Below, piece after piece: positions 1,184 to 25,057 of a stretch of DNA of 25,062 bases. Where the stretch lies: contig CAYXWT010000007.1 of NCBI GenBank assembly GCA_964468895.1, positions 1-25,062 of the forward strand, written 5' to 3'. Source of the DNA: an uncultured archaeon (GTDB lineage: Archaea; Iainarchaeota; Iainarchaeia; Iainarchaeales; CSSED10-239). The notes under the pieces are model-generated. The model saw only the letters and a program-made list of their open reading frames with translations. It did not search any database and had not been told where the DNA came from. Every line of letters starts with the position of its first letter. The stretch's first letter is position 1. The translations under genes were made by a program, and so were the position numbers.

Positions 1184-2500
1184 TTATTTTATAATTTCCC
1201 AATACCCTGCTTTAGTACTACCTTTTCTTTTAATTTTTTGATTATTTTTTAATTTATTTAGATTATATTTTACACCTTCAGATGTTAAATGTCCTAGTTT
1301 TTCACTTAGTTCTTTTCTAGTTATTTTTGGATTTCCTTTAATTAATTTTAATATTTCTTGGGTAGTTTCTTGGGTAGTTTCTTGGGTAGTTTCTTGGGTA
1401 GTTTTTCTATAGAATATTATTGTATACCAGTCATCGTTAACTTCAAATTTAAGTTTAAGGTTATATTCTTTCATTAATGATTTCATTCTTTTTATACCTG
1501 AGCCAATTTTTTCTATTAAATTGATTCTTAGTAAAATATCTGCTAGTAATGGGTTTCTATATACACTTCTTTTACCTAAATCTTTTTTAGTTAAACCTTT
1601 TACTAATCCACCAGCATTTGTAATTTCTATTCTATTATTATAAATTCCAATTTGTATGTTTGAATCTATGAAATAATCTCTATGAACTATTGCATTTATT
1701 ATTGCTTCTCTAAGTGCTTCTTTTGGAAGTTCTAATTTATTTGTCCTTTTACTTCCTTTTATAATATAGTTTGTATTTAATTTAGAATAAATATATTCTA
1801 AAGCTTTATTATAATTTGTATTTATATCTTCACAAAAATCTTTTCTGTCTAAAATAATTACTTTATCTAATCCTTGGTATAAAACACAAGTAATTGTTGC
1901 TTCTCTAATGTATTTTTTAATATTGTTTGTAAATAGTAGAACTCCTGCATTTTTAAGATGATTATTTTCTAATAGGTCTATATTAGTTAAGATGTTTTTT
2001 TTACTAATATTCTTAGTAATATTTGCTTTTGTTATAAATTCAGTAAATAATTTATTATTAATATCTTTTGGATATTTAAAATTGTAATTTATTTTATTAT
2101 CAAATTTTATTAAACCATCTTTCTGAAAAAATTCTAATAATTCTTTTTTGTTCATCTTTTGAGAATTACTACCTTGTCGTAGATAAAATTTACCTTTTAC
2201 TGAATAGGGTTTATTTGTACCACAAGGTACTGAGATTATTAAAATATCTTTATTTGTGTTGTTTATTTCTATATTAAAAGTAGGATCCATATTTCTAGAA
2301 ATATTTTGTATTTCTGACTTTATTTTGTTATTTATTTTAAAACCTATGACTTTACCTATATCTGTAATTCCTACATATATTTTACCACCATCAGAATTAG
2401 CAAATGCACAAATATCTTTGTCAATATTATTCAAGCTTTCTTTAAATTCTATTGTGTAGCCTTCTCCAATAGCAATTAAATCATTTATTTTCGAATTCAT
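1184..2500 (-). CDS. AlbA_2 (Schlafen-like) + HATPase_c_4-like + C-terminal wHTH protein (COG2865-type putative regulator/ATP-binding protein)
   Basis: 438-aa ORF. The N-terminus IAIGEGYTIEFKES...ICAFANSDGGKIYVGI matches the AlbA_2 signature. The middle has REAIINAIVHRDY...IEITNAGGL and RNPLLADILLRINLIEKIGSGIKRM. The C-terminus ILKLIKGNPKITRKELSEKLG..GVKYNLNKLK looks like a winged helix. Confidence 0.75.
   Translation of the reverse strand: MNSKINDLIAIGEGYTIEFKESLNNIDKDICAFANSDGGKIYVGITDIGKVIGFKINNKIKSEIQNISRNMDPTFNIEINNTNKDILIISVPCGTNKPYSVKGKFYLRQGSNSQKMNKKELLEFFQKDGLIKFDNKINYNFKYPKDINNKLFTEFITKANITKNISKKNILTNIDLLENNHLKNAGVLLFTNNIKKYIREATITCVLYQGLDKVIILDRKDFCEDINTNYNKALEYIYSKLNTNYIIKGSKRTNKLELPKEALREAIINAIVHRDYFIDSNIQIGIYNNRIEITNAGGLVKGLTKKDLGKRSVYRNPLLADILLRINLIEKIGSGIKRMKSLMKEYNLKLKFEVNDDWYTIIFYRKTTQETTQETTQETTQEILKLIKGNPKITRKELSEKLGHLTSEGVKYNLNKLKNNQKIKRKGSTKAGYWEIIK
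1354..1401. repeat. Perfect 12-bp tandem repeat x4 (tttcttgggtag), in frame, encoding (TTQE)x4
   Basis: Four identical consecutive 12-mers read directly from the sequence. They lie in the linker between the ATPase-like body and the C-terminal wHTH of the 1184..2500 ORF. Confidence 0.95.
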
Positions 2501-4136: not shown

Positions 4137-4649
4137 ATGAATTATAGTACTAAAAAATCTTTAGCAGTATTAGACACTTCATTTTATATTCATTTAGTTA
4201 AAATTGATTTAATAGATATTTTTTTAAATTTCTATAAAATTATTGTTTGTTCAAAAGTTAAAGAAGAAATTACTTATTTTATATATAGAGATTTGTATCT
4301 TCCAAAGGATATAGAATTATTTTTAAAATTTGAAAAATCAGATATTATAAGAATTGAAAATCCAACTAAAATTTCTAAAAGTTTAATTAGCGAAATTTCT
4401 AATGATTCTGGAGAGATGTATGCTATAGCTTTAGCTCAAGAAAAAAATAGCATTGTTTTTATAGATAATGGAAGACCATATAAGTATTGTTTAAAAAATA
4501 AAATATTGTGTTCTAATATTGTTGAATTTTTATTATATTTATATACAAATAGAATTATTACTAAAAGAGAAATTTTAAATAAAATTAAAATAATAGAAAA
4601 TACCTTGCCAAAAGAATATTTATTAGAAATATATTCTAAAATGGAGTAG
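4137..4649 (+). CDS. PIN-like nucleic-acid-binding protein, DUF3368-type (putative toxin)
   Basis: N-terminal AVLDTSFYIHLVKIDLIDIF has the acidic residue at the strand end typical of PIN domains. The central SGEMYAIALAQEKNSIVFIDNGRPYKYC matches the GE..aI.LA.e....l.DD..aR pattern of DUF3368. It is adjacent to a UPF0175-like gene. Confidence 0.6.
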   Translation: MNYSTKKSLAVLDTSFYIHLVKIDLIDIFLNFYKIIVCSKVKEEITYFIYRDLYLPKDIELFLKFEKSDIIRIENPTKISKSLISEISNDSGEMYAIALAQEKNSIVFIDNGRPYKYCLKNKILCSNIVEFLLYLYTNRIITKREILNKIKIIENTLPKEYLLEIYSKME

Positions 4650-4655
4650 AATTTT

Positions 4656-5021
4656 ATGTCTTCAAAAAAATCTGAAATTATGAAAGTTAAAACTTTAAGA
4701 TTAAAAGATTCAGTTTCATCACTTATAACTATCATTGCTAAAGAAAAGAACTTAAGTGACTCTGAATATATTAGATCTTTAGTAGAAAAGGATATTTTTA
4801 AGTTTAAAATTAATAAAGCAATTAATGCTTATAAAAAAAGAGAAATTAACATATCTAAAGGTGCTGAAATTATAGGTGTTTCTTATAGAGAATTCTTAGA
4901 TATACTTGAAGAAAGAGCAGTTCCCTTAAATATGGATAATTTTCCTATAGACTATGGATTAGCATCTATTGAAAAATCATTAAGCCCAACAGTGAAAAAT
5001 AAAATTAAAAAAAATAAGTAA
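4656..5021 (+). CDS. UPF0175-like small HTH protein (putative antitoxin)
   Basis: AINAYKKREINISKGAEIIGVSYREFLDILEERAVPLNMD matches the UPF0175 core (a..lY..g.lSlg.AAelaG.s..eF...L...gip). It starts 6 nt after the PIN-like gene. Confidence 0.55.
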   Translation: MSSKKSEIMKVKTLRLKDSVSSLITIIAKEKNLSDSEYIRSLVEKDIFKFKINKAINAYKKREINISKGAEIIGVSYREFLDILEERAVPLNMDNFPIDYGLASIEKSLSPTVKNKIKKNK

Positions 5022-8902: not shown

Positions 8903-8938
8903 AATTAATTTATTTTATTTATAAAACAAATGTTCTTT

Positions 8939-9011
8939 GCCTTTGTAGCTCAGTTGGTAGAGCATTTGCTTCGTAAGCAAAAGGTCGTGGGTTCAAAGCC
9001 CATCAAAGGCT
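8939..9011 (+). tRNA. tRNA-Thr (anticodon CGU)
   Basis: GCCTTTG-TA-GCTC-AGTTGGTA-GAGC-A-TTTGC-TTCGTAA-GCAAA-AGGTC-GTGGG-TTCAAAG-CCCAT-CAAAGGC-T gives a full hand-folded cloverleaf. No CCA is encoded. Confidence 0.9.
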
Positions 9012-9039
9012 TTGTGATTTCCTGAGCTTTCTATATTAA

Positions 9040-9069
9040 AAAGCAACTTGTTTATAAACTTGTTGCTTT
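9040..9069. promoter_or_regulatory. 30-bp near-perfect palindrome centred on a TATA-like box; candidate operator/promoter of the wHTH-NTase pair
   Basis: aaagcaacTTgtttataaacTTgttgcttt matches its own reverse complement at 26 of 30 positions. The core gtttataaac is a perfect palindrome. aacttgtt also occurs as a direct repeat on both sides of 'tata'. The centre lies about 27 nt upstream of the ATG at 9082, the spacing expected for an archaeal TATA box and a leaderless mRNA. Confidence 0.5.
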
Positions 9070-9081
9070 AAAATATAATTT

Positions 9082-9963
9082 ATGAAACTAACAAAAACTC
9101 AACTATATGTTTTTTTAGAAATTATAAAACAGAAAAATAAAGTTTCTTTGATATGTAAAGATCTTAATAAAAGTAGGTTTCAAATAAATAAAGTTATAAG
9201 GCAATTAATTGAAAAGAGATTTATTATAAAAGAAAAATATTTGTTAAATATATCTAATTATCCTTTTTCTTTAGAACTTAAGTTTTTATTAACTAAATTT
9301 CCTAAATTAATAACTGTTTTATCTGATAATGGTCTTATTTTATTAATTTCTTTTTTAAAAGAATCTACGGTTAAAGAAATTTCTGTAGATACTAAGATTA
9401 AAGAAATTACAATTTATAAATTTATAAATAAAGCAAATAATTTCTCAATTTTAATTAAAAGAAAAAATAAATATTTATTTAATGAAAAATTATGGGGTGA
9501 TTTAAAATATTTTTTATTAAATTATAAATCTTTTAATTATAATTTTGATAGTAAGGTACCTATTGGCTCAAAAATATATTATAAAAATAAAGATGAAATT
9601 GTATTTTCTTATGAAAAAGATTTAGATTGGGCTTCTATAACAGCATTTACTGCTTTTCAAAAATATAATATTCTTTTGTTTAGTAATATTGGTTATTATT
9701 ATTTACCTAAAAAAAGATTAACTAAAAAGGAGATTTTATTTCATACTGTTAAAATTGTTGAAAAAACAATGGATTTTAGGGAAATTTTGTATCTAGCACT
9801 ATTTTATTATAAATATAAAATTGAGTTTAAAAATATAAATTTAGAACTAAAATCAAATATATTAAATAATCTAGATCAAATTTATCTTGGAGAAAAAATA
9901 AAAGGATATCCTCCATTAAATGAAATTCAAGAAAAAGCAGAATTGTATGATATTAAATTGTGA
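9082..9963 (+). CDS. Double winged-helix (MarR/TrmB-like) DNA-binding protein with uncharacterised C-terminal domain; possible AbiEi-like antitoxin/regulator
   Basis: wHTH 1 is at about aa 5-55 (LYVFLEIIKQKNKVSLICKDLNKSRFQINKVIRQLIEKRFIIKEK). wHTH 2 is at about aa 85-135 (LISFLKESTVKEISVDTKIKEITIYKFINKANNFSILIKRKNKY). A ~150-aa C-terminal domain follows. It stops 7 nt upstream of the NTase gene. Confidence 0.45.
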   Translation: MKLTKTQLYVFLEIIKQKNKVSLICKDLNKSRFQINKVIRQLIEKRFIIKEKYLLNISNYPFSLELKFLLTKFPKLITVLSDNGLILLISFLKESTVKEISVDTKIKEITIYKFINKANNFSILIKRKNKYLFNEKLWGDLKYFLLNYKSFNYNFDSKVPIGSKIYYKNKDEIVFSYEKDLDWASITAFTAFQKYNILLFSNIGYYYLPKKRLTKKEILFHTVKIVEKTMDFREILYLALFYYKYKIEFKNINLELKSNILNNLDQIYLGEKIKGYPPLNEIQEKAELYDIKL

Positions 9964-9970
9964 TTGATTT

Positions 9971-10627
9971 ATGACTAGATACATTGATAGTTTTGACCAA
10001 ATATTTGAGGTTTTTGAAAAGTTAGATAAAAAATTAAACAGAAAGACGAATATTTATCTTATTGGAGGTGCTGTCTTATTATATAATAACCTTAAAGTAG
10101 GCACAAAAGACATTGATATTGTTGTTTTAAAAAAAGATGATTTTGATTTATTTAATAGTATTTTGTTGAAATCAGAATTTATAATAGAAAAGCCAACAAA
10201 AGATTATTCTCATATGAAATTAGATAAAATATTAGTTAAAGAAAATTATAGAATTGATATTTTTAATAAAATTGTTTGTGGAAAATTATCTTTAAGTGAA
10301 AGTATGATTAAAAGAGCTAAACTTATAAAAAATTATAAACATATTGATTTGTTTGCTTGTTCTAATGAAGATGTATTTGTATTTAAAAGTATTACTGAAA
10401 GGGATGGAGATGTTGATGATTGTCAATCTATATCTCTTTCTAGTATTAATTGGAATATTGTATTTGATGAAATAAAATATCAAATTAAAGAAAACGGTTC
10501 TGATGTTTGGATTACTTGGTTTGAAGAAAGATTAAATTTACTTGAAGATAGAGGAATTGTAATTCCTATAATTAAAGATATAAGAACTATGAGTAAGGTG
10601 TATTTTGATAAGTTAGAAAAAGATTAG
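9971..10627 (+). CDS. Minimal nucleotidyltransferase-fold protein (AbiEii / MNT / DUF6036-like)
   Basis: IYLIGGAVLLYNNLKVGTKDIDIVV gives the G[GS] and DxD pattern of pol-beta-fold NTases. A third acidic strand is YRIDIF. The downstream CSNEDVFVFKSITERDGDVDDCQSI resembles the ..eD.i..Kl.agR.kD..D block seen in HTH-associated archaeal NTases. Confidence 0.5.
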   Translation: MTRYIDSFDQIFEVFEKLDKKLNRKTNIYLIGGAVLLYNNLKVGTKDIDIVVLKKDDFDLFNSILLKSEFIIEKPTKDYSHMKLDKILVKENYRIDIFNKIVCGKLSLSESMIKRAKLIKNYKHIDLFACSNEDVFVFKSITERDGDVDDCQSISLSSINWNIVFDEIKYQIKENGSDVWITWFEERLNLLEDRGIVIPIIKDIRTMSKVYFDKLEKD

Positions 10628-10704: not shown

Positions 10705-10788
10705 AATAAATATAGTTTAAATAATATTGTTTCTTCTAATTATATACTAATTTAAAAAAACAAAAATATTTTTGGAAAAAATAAGGTT
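10705..10788 (+). repeat. Non-coding duplicate of the 3' end of the GNAT gene (copy of 12102-12184)
   Basis: A 42-nt perfect match (10705-10746 = 12102-12143) is followed by 42 nt with 3 mismatches and a 1-nt A-run indel. Weaker similarity may extend back to about 10629-10685. Confidence 0.9.
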
Positions 10789-10806
10789 CTAAAACAAATA
10801 TTCTTT

Positions 10807-10879
10807 GCTTTTGTAGTTAAATTGAAAAAATATTTGATTAGCAAGCAAAAGGTAGTGGGTTCAAATTCCATCAAAAGCT
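10807..10879 (+). pseudogene. Decayed full-length copy of tRNA-Thr (tRNA-like remnant; anticodon position now AGC)
   Basis: It has the same length (73 nt) as the 8939-9011 tRNA and aligns without indels. By hand alignment 57 of 73 positions are identical, and 14 of the 16 changes are G/C->A/T. The acceptor stem is still fully paired, with a compensatory C3-G70 -> T3-A70 change. The T arm is still paired. The D and anticodon stems are disrupted. The 16-nt leader is also copied (15/16 identical). Confidence 0.75.
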
Positions 10880-10885
10880 TTTAGT

Positions 10886-11646
10886 GTGTATGATATGTTA
10901 TTTAAATTTTTTAAAAAAAGACCAAAGGTATTATTAGGTAAAATTAATTTAAAACCAAATGAAAGAGTTAGAACAAAAAGTTCTGTTGATAGTAAATTAG
11001 TTGTAACTAAGGTTAATGGTAGAACTCAGTATTATTCAAAATATTTTGGTTCTAAAGGTTCTATAAAAGATAGGCTTGTTTTACATTTAAGTGTAGTTGC
11101 AAAAAATTTAATTAACAGGATAACAAATAAAGAAATTAATTTTGAAAATAGTTTTGTTAAAATTAATTTATGTCCATTTTACGTGTCAGAAGGTTCAAAC
11201 CATGATCATGTTTATAGTTTAAATATGTATTCTAAAAAAGATAAGACTTCACAAAAATATTTTGTAAAAACGTCTAAAGAAAATATGTTTCCTAGTTCTA
11301 ATGAATTTGTTGCGAATAAAATCTTTGAAAAGTTTGGTATTAATACAATTAAACCACACATTGCATATTTTAATCCTGAATCAAAAGGTAATTTTATAAT
11401 ATATGATTTTACAAATTTAAGTTCTTTATCTTTGTCAAGATCTCATGGTGAAATTACATCCTCAGAATATATATCGGTACTGAAAAAAGCAGAAAAATTA
11501 TATGATTATTGTTAGGATATTTTGACTTTAAAGGTATTGGAGATTTTTTAAATCCTGCTAATATTTTTGTAAAAAAAACTGCTGATAATAAAATTAAGAT
11601 ATATTTTACAGATTTATTGATTGGAGTCAAAATCCATACTTATTAA
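10886..11646 (+). pseudogene. Kinase-like (protein-kinase/APH/RIO-type fold) gene interrupted by a -1 frameshift and C-terminally short
   Basis: The ORF 10886..11515 (GTG start; first ATG at 10895) has N-lobe-like features: KYFVKTSKEN (beta3 Lys), NEFVANKIFEKFGI (alphaC) and FIIYDF (hinge). It then hits TAG at 11513. The -1 frame, open from 11506 to a TAA at 11644-11646, continues with GYFDFKGIGDFLNPANIFVKK...KIYFTDLLIG. That resembles a catalytic-loop (GDxxPxNI) and DFG-like pair. Confidence 0.4.
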
Positions 11647-23548: not shown

Positions 23549-25057
23549 TTGTTTTTAAAATTAAATGGTGATAATTTGTTTAAGATATTTAGAAAAAATA
23601 AAAAAAATGTTGTTGACAATCAATCAAAAATACCTACACCTTCAATTAAAGTTAAGAGGGTAATAAATCCTATATTTAAAAAAAAGGCCAAAGGTACAAA
23701 AAGTAATCCTACTTTAAGAGAAGCAAAAAATAAATTGAAAAAGTATCATTCTGAAGAGATACATGGTTTTTTGAAAAACCTTGGTACTAAAGAAAATCCT
23801 GCAAGAAGTCTTCTAGCTAAAGGTATAGATGCAAGGCAGTTAAAAAAAAGAGGTTTTAATGTTGTACTTTTAAAAAATTTAGGTTTTGGAATTGGTGAAT
23901 TACATATACTAGGTTTTAATGCTTTGGATTTAATGAGAACAGGTGTTACTTCTCTTGAATTTAAAAAAATTGGTATTAATGCTGTAAAACTTTACAAAGA
24001 AAATATTAGTGCTAGTTTGTTAAAAAAAATTGGTTTTGGAATTGGTGAATTAAAGAATGCTGGTTTTGATGTTCGTAAGTTAAAGACTGCTGGTTTTGGT
24101 GCTGGTGAATTAAAAAAAGTTGGTTTTGGAGCTGGTGAATTAATGAAAGTTGGTTTTGGAGCTGGTGAATTAAAGAAAGCCGGTTTTGGTCTTAAAATTT
24201 TAACAGAAATTGGTTTTGGTCCTGATAAATTAAAGAAGGCTGGTTTTGGTGTTGGTGAATTAAAAAAAGGTGGTTTTAAAGCTCGTCATTTACGTAATTT
24301 TGGTTTTGGTGCTGTTGAATTAAAGAAAGCTGGTTTTACTGCTGTTGAGTTAAAGAAAGCTGGTTTTAGTTTTAAAATATTGTCAGAAGAACTACAGTTT
24401 TCTACTGTTGAATTAAAAAGTGCAGGTTTTGGTGTTAGGGAATTCCATAATGCTGGTTTTAATGGTGTTAGTTTAAAAAAAATGGGTTTTAGTGTTGGTG
24501 AAGTGTTGAAAATTTATAACTTAAAAACATTAAAAAAAATTGGTTTTACTGCTGTTGAATTTAAGAATGCTGGTTTTGGTCCTAGAATTTTAAAAGAATC
24601 TGGTTTTGGTAATGTTGCAATAAAATCTGCTGGTTTTAAACTTATAGAATTGAAAAAGGATGGTTTTACTGCTAGTGAATTATCAGGTATAGGGTTTACT
24701 GTTAAGGAATTAAAGGAAGTAGGGTTTACTGTTAAAGAATTAATAAAAGAACGTTTTACAATTAAGGAATTGATACAAGGAGATTGTTCTGCTAAAGAAT
24801 TAAGAGGATCTCTTAGGAATATTAATTTTAAAAGAGCTGGTTTTAATATTATTAAATTAAAAAATATAGGTTTTACTTGTCTTGAGTTAAGAAATAGGGG
24901 TTTTAATATTGTAGATTTAAAAAATGCTGGCTTTGGAATCGTGGATATAGTTTCTACAAACAGGTTTACAATTTCTGAACTATTACAAACAGGTTATTCT
25001 CAAAAAGAAGTTAATTTAGCATTTGGAAAACTAAAATCTAAAGGTACTAAAAAATAA
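23549..25057 (+). CDS. Basic tandem-repeat protein: about 40 consecutive decapeptide units (consensus GFxxxELKKA), pentapeptide-repeat-like
   Basis: A single 502-codon ORF with no in-frame ATG near the 5' end. The track start is the TTG at 23549. The TTG at 23576 is preceded by GGTGA (23567-23571) and a 4-nt spacer, exactly as for the 19291 gene, and is the more likely start. The lysine-rich N-terminal ~85 aa are followed by the repeat array. Confidence 0.8.
   Translation: MFLKLNGDNLFKIFRKNKKNVVDNQSKIPTPSIKVKRVINPIFKKKAKGTKSNPTLREAKNKLKKYHSEEIHGFLKNLGTKENPARSLLAKGIDARQLKKRGFNVVLLKNLGFGIGELHILGFNALDLMRTGVTSLEFKKIGINAVKLYKENISASLLKKIGFGIGELKNAGFDVRKLKTAGFGAGELKKVGFGAGELMKVGFGAGELKKAGFGLKILTEIGFGPDKLKKAGFGVGELKKGGFKARHLRNFGFGAVELKKAGFTAVELKKAGFSFKILSEELQFSTVELKSAGFGVREFHNAGFNGVSLKKMGFSVGEVLKIYNLKTLKKIGFTAVEFKNAGFGPRILKESGFGNVAIKSAGFKLIELKKDGFTASELSGIGFTVKELKEVGFTVKELIKERFTIKELIQGDCSAKELRGSLRNINFKRAGFNIIKLKNIGFTCLELRNRGFNIVDLKNAGFGIVDIVSTNRFTISELLQTGYSQKEVNLAFGKLKSKGTKK
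23810..25010 (+). repeat. 30-nt coding tandem repeat array (about 40 units)
   Basis: Example units are gttggttttggagctggtgaattaatgaaa (24119-24148) and gttggttttggagctggtgaattaaagaaa (24149-24178), which differ at 2 of 30 positions. A second near-identical pair is at about 24700-24760. Outer units are more diverged. The register holds except for a few +/-1 codon slips. Confidence 0.9.

Follow-up and report, generated by a model that had tools for sequence, protein, structure and literature searches.

This analysis concerns a two-gene locus in a 25,062-nucleotide stretch of DNA from an uncultured archaeon of the Iainarchaeales (contig CAYXWT010000007.1 of GenBank assembly GCA_964468895.1), referred to here as the window. 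The window is AT-rich, with a guanine-plus-cytosine (GC) content of ~21%, and is archaeal in its coding content, which includes fibrillarin, Nop, TFB, L15e, and Pus10. The nearest named relatives of its GlyRS are labelled Iainarchaeum/Diapherotrites, which identifies the organism as a DPANN-type archaeon. The two genes, termed A and B, both lie on the forward strand with a spacing of 7 nucleotides. A encodes a protein with two winged helix-turn-helix (wHTH) domains, and B encodes a nucleotidyltransferase of the DUF6036 family. An even chance is given to the reading, drawn from sequence comparison, that the pair is a self-repressed, two-gene accessory module of the toxin-antitoxin type, belonging to an uncharacterized archaeal family (wHTH-wHTH-HVO_2833_C plus DUF6036). 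The features of the locus are collected in Table 1.

Table 1. Features of the A-B locus and coordinates of natural A-B fusions. Positions are those of the window unless another locus is named; residue numbers are those of the respective protein.
Feature	Position	Strand	Description
Gene A	9082-9963	+	Open reading frame (ORF), 293 amino acids
Gene B	9971-10627	+	ORF, 218 amino acids
wHTH1 of A	9082-9255	+	Residues 1-58; AlphaFold2 model
wHTH2 of A	9325-9483	+	Residues about 82-134; AlphaFold2 model
Long helix of A		+	Residues 139-154; AlphaFold2 model
C-terminal domain of A, HVO_2833_C-like	9547-9960	+	Residues 156-293; AlphaFold2 model, hhalign
B motif I			G32-G33; invariant in 30 homologues
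B motif II			T45-K46-D47-I-D49; invariant in 30 homologues
B third carboxylate			D96; invariant in 30 homologues
B C-terminal motif			K139-x4-R144-x2-D147-x2-D150; invariant in 30 homologues
Imperfect palindrome, candidate operator	9032-9077	.	46 nucleotides; inverted repeat with outer arms TATATT/AATATA
Inner arms of the palindrome	AAAGCAAC 9040-9047, GTTGCTTT 9062-9069		AAAGCAAC-N14-GTTGCTTT core, 9040-9069
TATA box	TTTATAAA 9051-9058		Center of the palindrome, 27.5 nucleotides before the ATG of A
tRNA-Thr(CGU), intact	8939-9011	+	ARAGORN; Rfam tRNA 71.7 bits
95-nucleotide direct repeat, left copy	8919-9013	+	Holds the intact tRNA-Thr
95-nucleotide direct repeat, right copy	10787-10881	+	Holds the degenerate tRNA-Thr
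Degenerate full-length tRNA-Thr copy	10807-10879	+	Rfam tRNA 51.7 bits; called tRNA-Ala(AGC) by ARAGORN
A-B fusions	L091 3014-4657; P0382/P0387/P0390/P0391/P0393/P0397/P0398/P0400; L103 634-2295		Single polypeptide of 518-558 amino acids

Protein B scores 29.1 bits against Pfam DUF6036 (PF19502), above the gathering score of 23.6, and the same family is matched by all 30 of its aligned homologues. A DUF6036-type profile had been guessed in the original prediction, which was made from the letters of the window before any database was searched. Residues G32, G33, T45, K46, D47, D49, D96, K139, R144, D147, and D150 are invariant in the 30 homologues. The pol-beta fold was recognized by an hG[GS] motif followed after 9-15 residues by [DE]h[DE]h, a third carboxylate on a later strand, and a core of alpha-beta-alpha-beta-alpha-beta order. 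B is a nucleotidyltransferase of this fold as judged by its invariant residues, by the fold of its AlphaFold2 model (predicted local distance difference test, pLDDT, 90.4), and by its Foldseek matches, all of which are nucleotidyltransferases. The nucleotidyltransferase fold first proposed for the second protein is therefore upheld by DUF6036 and Foldseek alike. The alignment shows that B keeps a complete predicted active site of the pol-beta type.

The top solved structure in the Foldseek search with B is the tRNA nucleotidyltransferase toxin MenT1 of Mycobacterium tuberculosis (8an5_B, E = 6.7e-6, template modelling (TM) score about 0.5), with which B shares 13-16% sequence identity. Next come TM1012, ANT(2'')-Ia, and LnuA, with E values of 1e-4 to 6e-3 and TM scores of roughly 0.5-0.6. 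The search of viral structures yielded nothing beyond generic, uncharacterized minimal nucleotidyltransferases from jumbo phages and giant viruses. A profile of B had no match at E <= 10 among PDB sequences, and neither a MenT nor an AbiEii chain was found there. MenT1 has the residues T39, R40, D41xD43, K137, R146, and D152, and antitoxin-induced autophosphorylation has been described at T39 of MenT1 and S78 of MenT3 (PMC11375011). The AbiEii motifs are hG[GS]x15DhD, Lys..Arg, and an acidic DxxD (PMC3985639). By order and spacing relative to these published descriptions, G32-G33, T45-K-D47-I-D49, K139..R144, and D147..D150 of B are analogous to the MenT and AbiEii motifs.

The AbiEi antitoxin structure 6Y8Q appeared at rank 18 of the Foldseek search with the B model, over 186 columns with a probability of 0.98 and E = 0.026. 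This match may point to a remote structural relationship between AbiEi and nucleotidyltransferases.

The AlphaFold2 model of A has a mean pLDDT of 94.6. Its two wHTH domains are followed by a long helix and by a C-terminal domain that is alpha/beta plus helical, with three short strands and helices. A Foldseek search with full-length A returned tandem winged-helix proteins only (SelB WH2-4, RPC62, and Stn1 among them), all at E > 0.02; together with the confident model, these matches agree with the double winged helix that had been proposed for the first protein. A profile of full-length A recovered only generic wHTH proteins from the PDB, and the profile of its C-terminal domain had no match there at E <= 10. 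Across 29 aligned homologues, conservation is highest in the C-terminal domain, and the winged helices are variable. D156, P160, Y166, and S176 of this domain are invariant, and R158 and H221 are nearly so.

Pfam detects a TrmB-type wHTH in 28 of the 29 A homologues and weak matches to HVO_2833_C (PF24271) in 21. The window's own A reaches 13-15 bits against the latter family, below the cut-off of 34. Haloarchaeal plasmid homologues of A have a clear wHTH-wHTH-HVO_2833_C architecture (E = 2e-47 and 8e-45 to the Pfam model). A aligns with these regulators in hhalign over its full length at 99.5% probability (E = 2.5e-22), and its C-terminal domain alone does so at 94% (E = 1.5e-7). Because of this profile-profile link to bona fide members, the C-terminal domain, which had been left unassigned, is now read as a divergent member of HVO_2833_C, a Pfam family of unknown function. 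The profile of the domain matched only 284 clusters among 1.84 billion representative proteins, and nearly all of these share the 285-295-amino-acid architecture of A.

Homologous loci were drawn from 428 matches among 185,579 GTDB species representatives, and the counts given here were made on the best 80 of the 428. Seven metagenomic contexts were also inspected. In all of the ~80 loci whose sequence extends sufficiently 5' of B, the gene immediately before B is a full-length A homologue in the same orientation. The stop codon of A overlaps the start of B by 17 nucleotides in 27 loci and by 4 nucleotides in nine, and nearly all others are 1-10 nucleotides apart. A and B are probably translationally coupled, and the operon first suggested by the 7-nucleotide gap in the window recurs throughout this set. 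The hosts are mostly DPANN archaea (Woese-, Pace-, Nano-, Aenigm-, and Iainarchaeota), with some contigs labelled Methanosarcinales, Methanofastidiosum, or Thermoplasmata. Neighboring genes are unrelated between loci and include GlyRS, AlaRS, RsmB, gyrB, a methylase/helicase/MazG island, and others.

A and B are fused in at least nine independent cases, which comprise eight 50%-identity clusters, locus L091, and one Halovenus plasmid gene annotated as an 'ArsR family transcriptional regulator'. Most of the fusions carry an additional C-terminal winged helix, and their hosts are DPANN archaea apart from the Halovenus plasmid. The L091 fusion retains TKDID, the third Asp, and the K..R..D..D motif. 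The overlapping stop and start codons, taken with the recurrent fusions, imply a fixed physical complex of A and B. Divergent copies may also stand side by side. Two A-B pairs of 45% and 57% identity are in tandem at L089, and the fusion at L091 lies beside an unfused pair; the two have separate operator sequences with different half-sites. The copies at L013 and L015 belong to one metagenome-assembled genome, are 89-95% identical, and were excluded from the paralogue count as possible strain variants.

Several further observations were made at these loci. The B homologue at L085 136-711 is broken by an in-frame TAG (…NLSEI*VRDDYRID…) and is either a pseudogene or the product of a sequencing error. 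More distant DUF6036 paralogues occur near an A-B pair at L009 1677-2929, L031 8233-8883, L049 4317-5030, L051 2676-3332, and L088 6669-7349. The paralogue at L009 is preceded by a 204-amino-acid protein with a single wHTH, the C-terminal part of which has no detectable relation to that of A; this arrangement may represent another kind of module, in which the DUF6036 protein has a different partner. At L007 1-4900, the pair adjoins a DNA methylase, a Schlafen-type helicase, a MazG-like gene, DUF559, and another DUF6036 fragment, and the neighborhood looks like a defense island.

An imperfect palindrome is located immediately upstream of gene A and is centered on the TATA box. The spacing between the TATA box and the ATG implies a leaderless or near-leaderless transcript. 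The core AAAGCAAC-N14-GTTGCTTT has a single occurrence in the window and did not arise in 100 shuffles. Dyad symmetry was tested in the 90 nucleotides upstream of A, aligned at the start codon, for 74 non-identical loci. Symmetry peaks at a center 26.5 nucleotides upstream of the start codon, where 8.1 of 16 positions are complementary, compared with 5.0 +/- 0.6 at other centers. This center coincides with the TATA box across the 74 loci. The consensus from -50 to -1 is TTccacaAAAAtgcgAAA.aTTTATAaAtaatT.gcaTTTTaaTggAaTT.

Two zones are more complementary than column shuffling predicts: an inner half-site at distance 10-13, where z reaches 6.2, and an outer one at distance 18-23, where z reaches 7.6. 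These z values are inflated by shared ancestry. Four pair types are found at complementary positions, so the arms of the dyad covary. Among the inner arms are GCGAA/TTCGC, GCAAC/GTTGC, TACCA/TGGTA, and TGCAAA/TTTGCA. The haloarchaeal plasmid copies, at ~30% protein identity, likewise have a nested dyad around the TATA box. An unrestricted best-palindrome score was only weakly discriminating against other intergenic DNA (12.6 versus 12.0, Mann-Whitney p = 2e-4), and the fixed-center and column-shuffle tests were used instead. The TATA-centered dyad is read as the putative operator of A-B; the original prediction had placed a palindromic operator on the pair's own TATA box, and its uniqueness in the window and its fixed center and covarying arms across the loci agree with this.

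The relation of the half-sites to the two winged helices was examined by partial Mantel correlation, controlling for the distance between C-terminal domains. The best correlate of the inner half-site is the recognition helix (helix 3) of wHTH1 (partial r = 0.20, p = 0.002), that of the outer half-site is the recognition helix (helix 3) of wHTH2 (partial r = 0.27, p = 0.002), and a control upstream segment gave a correlation of about 0. These correlations are no more than suggestive that wHTH1 reads the inner half-site and wHTH2 the outer one.

The genomic surroundings of the pair were compared in syntenic relatives, which were found by a GlyRS homologue search and contig look-ups. A metagenome scan with the GlyRS protein for further syntenic relatives returned only the window's own contig. 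Seven genomes, with the window counted, share the block rubrerythrin-desulfoferrodoxin-Ogg-(Pus10)-tRNA-Leu-GlyRS-[slot]-PPIase-Na/Ca exchanger-fibrillarin-Nop. A-B occupies this slot in three of the seven, namely the window, L001 (GlyRS 80% identical to that of the window), and L004 (64%). The slot holds MarC and HSP20 in L094 (73%), a HAD hydrolase in L095 (66%), DUF7980 and others in L096 (65%), and DUF7980 and AhpC in L097 (64%). Neither A nor B is detectable in any of the latter four genomes. Since the pair is absent from four of the seven syntenic relatives, it is not a core operon, and the accessory status first ascribed to it stands.

The GC content of A-B is below that of the flanking DNA in 60 of 72 loci, with a mean difference of 3.3 points. 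A tblastn search of PLSDB with B gave 93 plasmid records with 113 places, at 30-34% identity, and nearly all of these plasmids are haloarchaeal, with Methanohalobium pMETEV01 in addition. Seven plasmid loci were inspected; the regulator gene is directly upstream in six and fused in the seventh. Their neighbors include Orc4/PolB replication genes, IS66, and a BREX methyltransferase. A divergent hypothetical gene of 107 amino acids lies ~140 nucleotides upstream of the regulator on the reverse strand of three haloarchaeal plasmids (L098 3576-3899, L102 77-400, and L104 77-400), and it may be a third conserved component in the haloarchaeal plasmid lineage.

The original prediction also likened the pair to the AbiE and MNT systems, and membership in these families is not supported by the searches. 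The hidden Markov model (HMM) PF08843 of the AbiEii/DUF1814 toxins (COG2253/COG4849) matched one of the 30 B homologues at E = 0.1, and the PADLOC AbiEii model matched one of the 30 at E = 0.024. PADLOC-DB v2 as a whole gave no match for B, and A matched only the generic wHTH part of the Csa3/CasR models, at E of at least 6e-4. The AbiEi Pfam family is not among the matches listed for A or its 29 homologues, nor is an AbiEi chain among the 50 listed Foldseek matches of full-length A. The listed matches of A and its homologues likewise include no HEPN family. The HEPN motif Rx4-6H does not occur in A, and the alignment has no conserved Arg or Lys 4-6 residues before H221. Membership in AbiEi, AbiEii, MNT, and HEPN was rejected, as the HMM searches lent it no support. 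The AbiE-like logic of the original prediction fared better. Comparative evidence points to a regulator- or antitoxin-like gene upstream of a toxin-like nucleotidyltransferase, with probable autoregulation.

The mechanism proposed for a toxin-antitoxin-type module is as follows. A dimer of A would bring four winged helices to an operator of outer-inner-TATA-inner-outer order; TBP/TFB would thereby be blocked and transcription of the leaderless A-B message repressed. The C-terminal HVO_2833_C domain of A would bind B and hold it inactive. A may silence B by inducing it to phosphorylate itself at the invariant Thr45, which stands at position -2 of the first catalytic Asp, in a manner comparable to MenT1 T39, MenT3 S78, and AbiEii. 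If A were lost or titrated, B would add nucleotides to cellular RNA, most likely to tRNA 3' ends, and translation would be arrested. Such an arrest would stabilize the carrying DNA or abort virus infection.

A wider claim can be made tentatively, and its chances fall somewhat short of even. The pairs would constitute an archaea-wide, previously unrecognized toxin-antitoxin or defense family, in which a MenT-like tRNA-modifying toxin is controlled by a repressor dimer with four winged helices, seated on its own TATA box, and is switched off by autophosphorylation of Thr45. If this is true, even DPANN symbionts with reduced genomes would harbor active members of the family, and the family would be tractable through the Haloferax volcanii protein HVO_2833, the namesake of the Pfam domain.

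A number of points weigh against a toxin-antitoxin role. Toxicity, neutralization, substrate, and DNA binding are all predicted features. B falls outside AbiEii/DUF1814 by HMM, and neither protein has a credible PADLOC match. No homologue was found on IMG/VR viral contigs or in GenBank phage genomes. The covariation at the operator is partly a product of common descent, as noted above, though compensatory changes are still evident. Stable A-B fusions are a poor fit to a classical labile antitoxin, and an autoinhibited enzyme fits them better. B is as conserved as GlyRS between the syntenic relatives (83% and 70% compared with 80% and 64%), and the pair has been retained at one locus across that GlyRS divergence; both facts also fit a useful, non-selfish function.

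Such a function is the substance of the foremost alternative, in which the pair is a non-toxic regulator-enzyme cassette. B would nucleotidylate a small molecule (antibiotic-like or xenobiotic) or carry out another beneficial modification, and A would be a ligand-responsive repressor whose HVO_2833_C domain senses the substrate. The margin of MenT1 over the non-toxic nucleotidyltransferases ANT(2'')-Ia, LnuA, and TM1012 in the Foldseek search is modest, and the TM scores are similar. A self-repressed promoter would suit an inducible resistance cassette, plasmid carriage is also typical of resistance genes, and the high conservation of B at one locus over a long divergence is in keeping with this role. 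The fixed complex implied by the stop/start overlap and the fusions would, however, be unusual for a repressor and the enzyme it regulates. The invariant Thr-x-Asp-x-Asp and K..R..D..D of B match MenT and AbiEii, divergent paralogues with distinct operators lie side by side, and the C-terminal domain of A is confined to this module. The cassette is judged unlikely on balance, with an appreciable share of the probability left to it.

A second alternative reverses the polarity of the pair, as in the HEPN-MNT systems of type VII. B would be a modifier or antitoxin acting on A, and A would be the effector or regulated target. Minimal nucleotidyltransferases act as antitoxins in the HepT/MntA systems, where this role is established, and weak matches to NTP_transf_2 are present in five of the 30 B homologues. 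The conserved residues of the C-terminal domain of A could likewise form an active or modified site. This arrangement is nevertheless improbable, as A has no HEPN Rx4-6H and is a DNA-binding protein with two winged helices, and as the regulator-first gene order and the B motifs match AbiE and MenAT, in which the nucleotidyltransferase is the toxin.

A third alternative stems from the tRNA-Thr that precedes the pair. The two copies of the 95-nucleotide direct repeat are 81% identical and bracket A-B. The degenerate tRNA in the right copy, as read from its sequence, has a broken D arm and an anticodon-stem mismatch and has no G3:U70. This copy probably marks an insertion or duplication event. 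The tRNA-Thr(CGU) itself has long occupied the slot that follows GlyRS and is also found there in L001, L094, L095, and L096. Segment 10648-10900, which contains the pseudo-tRNA, has no counterpart in L001, the closest relative. In L004 the pair directly follows GlyRS, with no tRNA there. A tRNA adjoins the pair at only about five independent genomic sites among the 80 loci, which is about the chance expectation by a rough estimate. For these reasons, the tRNA scar is a local event and not a general insertion mechanism. The recombination scar of the original prediction is real, with its repeats in the same forward orientation, but is specific to this lineage, and tRNA-targeted integration as a general property of the module was rejected. 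It is very improbable that the pair is left over from an integrated element that targeted a tRNA and that it has a locus-specific integration or maintenance function: the bracketing repeat and a hypervariable slot that anciently holds a tRNA-Thr would suit such an element, but no integrase is encoded between the repeats, L001 lacks the pseudo-tRNA segment and L004 the tRNA, and the module occurs in many unrelated contexts.

Other features of the window were noted. Directly 3' of the pseudo-tRNA, a 209-amino-acid ORF with a GTG start and no family match is found at 10886-11515 (+). The homologous region of L001 has 72% DNA identity and contains only ORFs of 43 and 50 amino acids, so the gene looks decayed in that genome. 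A second candidate toxin-antitoxin pair is present at 4137-5021 (+) and consists of a 170-amino-acid ORF and a 121-amino-acid UPF0175 protein. The L001 orthologue of the 170-amino-acid ORF matches DUF3368, which we take to be PIN-like, and a pair similar to this one occurs elsewhere in the L094 locus. At 1184-2500 (-), a 438-amino-acid protein contains Schlafen AlbA_2 (Pfam E = 4e-22), HATPase_c_4 (6e-19), and a C-terminal wHTH (7e-6), an architecture known from defense-type contexts. A 502-amino-acid decapeptide/pentapeptide-repeat protein (Pfam Decapeptide E = 2e-95) is encoded at 23549-25057 (+), where the GC content of the window is highest (28-30%).

Archaeal toxin-antitoxin and defense systems are far less explored than bacterial ones, above all in DPANN symbionts with genomes of ~1 Mb. 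The A-B module unites two domains of unknown function, DUF6036 and HVO_2833_C, in one conserved unit. It also offers a concrete, testable mechanism, with an operator over the TATA box, a MenT-like enzyme chemistry, and a candidate regulatory Thr. If B modifies tRNA ends, the mode of translation control known from MenT and AbiEii would gain a third family, one that is structurally minimal and spans archaeal phyla. The nested operator, paired with two winged helices in each monomer, would serve as a model of how an archaeal repressor occludes TBP/TFB. Experiments are feasible because homologues are carried on many haloarchaeal plasmids and the haloarchaea include genetically tractable species.

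Among the closest known systems are the pairs annotated in haloarchaea and methanogens as 'MarR/ArsR family transcriptional regulator' and 'DUF6036 family nucleotidyltransferase'. These are full-length homologues by hhalign (99.5% for A and 100% for B) and have the same gene order, a 4-nucleotide overlap, and the nested dyad around the TATA box. They differ in their protein identity of ~30% and in their enzymes, which are ~267 amino acids long with an extra C-terminal winged helix. In the searchable literature, no paper mentions DUF6036 or HVO_2833.

The small-molecule nucleotidyltransferases ANT(2'')-Ia and LnuA, together with TM1012, resemble B in having a minimal nucleotidyltransferase domain and a helical domain. 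We know of no obligatory co-encoded DNA-binding partner and of no fusion for any of the three. They are also not known to have a Thr at position -2 of the first Asp.

HepT/MntA (HEPN-MNT, type VII) shares with A-B a minimal pol-beta-fold nucleotidyltransferase in a two-gene module, and such modules are common in archaea. There, however, the nucleotidyltransferase is the antitoxin, and the partner of B is not a HEPN protein. The nucleotidyltransferase motif of HepT/MntA is typically Ser-Asp-x-Asp, in contrast to Thr-Lys-Asp-x-Asp in B.

MenAT1 and MenAT3 of Mycobacterium tuberculosis resemble the module through MenT1, the best solved fold match for B and an enzyme of similar size. By order and spacing, the Thr/Ser-x-Asp-x-Asp site (MenT1 T39, MenT3 S78, and B Thr45) also recurs in them, with Lys, Arg, and Asp at comparable distances. 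MenA3 is an antitoxin made of a winged helix and a C-terminal domain, like A in outline, whereas MenA1 is a 7-kDa peptide that lacks DNA binding and autoregulation.

AbiE is a type IV toxin-antitoxin and abortive-infection system that was recently reclassified as type VII. Like A-B, AbiE (AbiEi/AbiEii; COG5340-COG2253/DUF1814) is a two-gene operon with the DNA-binding gene first and the nucleotidyltransferase second, and it is found on mobile elements. Its enzyme has hG[GS]..DhD, K..R, and DxxD motifs (PMC3985639; PMC7319586), to which those of B are analogous in order and spacing. Its antitoxin consists of an N-terminal winged helix with a C-terminal neutralizing domain, and negative autoregulation acts through inverted repeats in the promoter. 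The differences are several. B belongs to DUF6036 and not to DUF1814, and is about 218 amino acids long. A has two winged helices and an HVO_2833_C-like domain, whereas AbiEi has one N-terminal wHTH. The A-B operator is a nested dyad centered on an archaeal TATA box, and natural A-B fusions exist. The module is known here from its sequence, and its toxicity and phage defense are predictions.

By analogy, then, the A-B module would resemble AbiE and MenAT3 in three ways: its operon of two genes would be autoregulated, its nucleotidyltransferase would be a toxin, and its regulator would double as an antitoxin with a winged-helix part and a C-terminal domain. It would be set apart from both by its duplicated winged helix, its HVO_2833_C domain, its DUF6036 enzyme of MenT1 size, and its nested operator centered on the TATA box.

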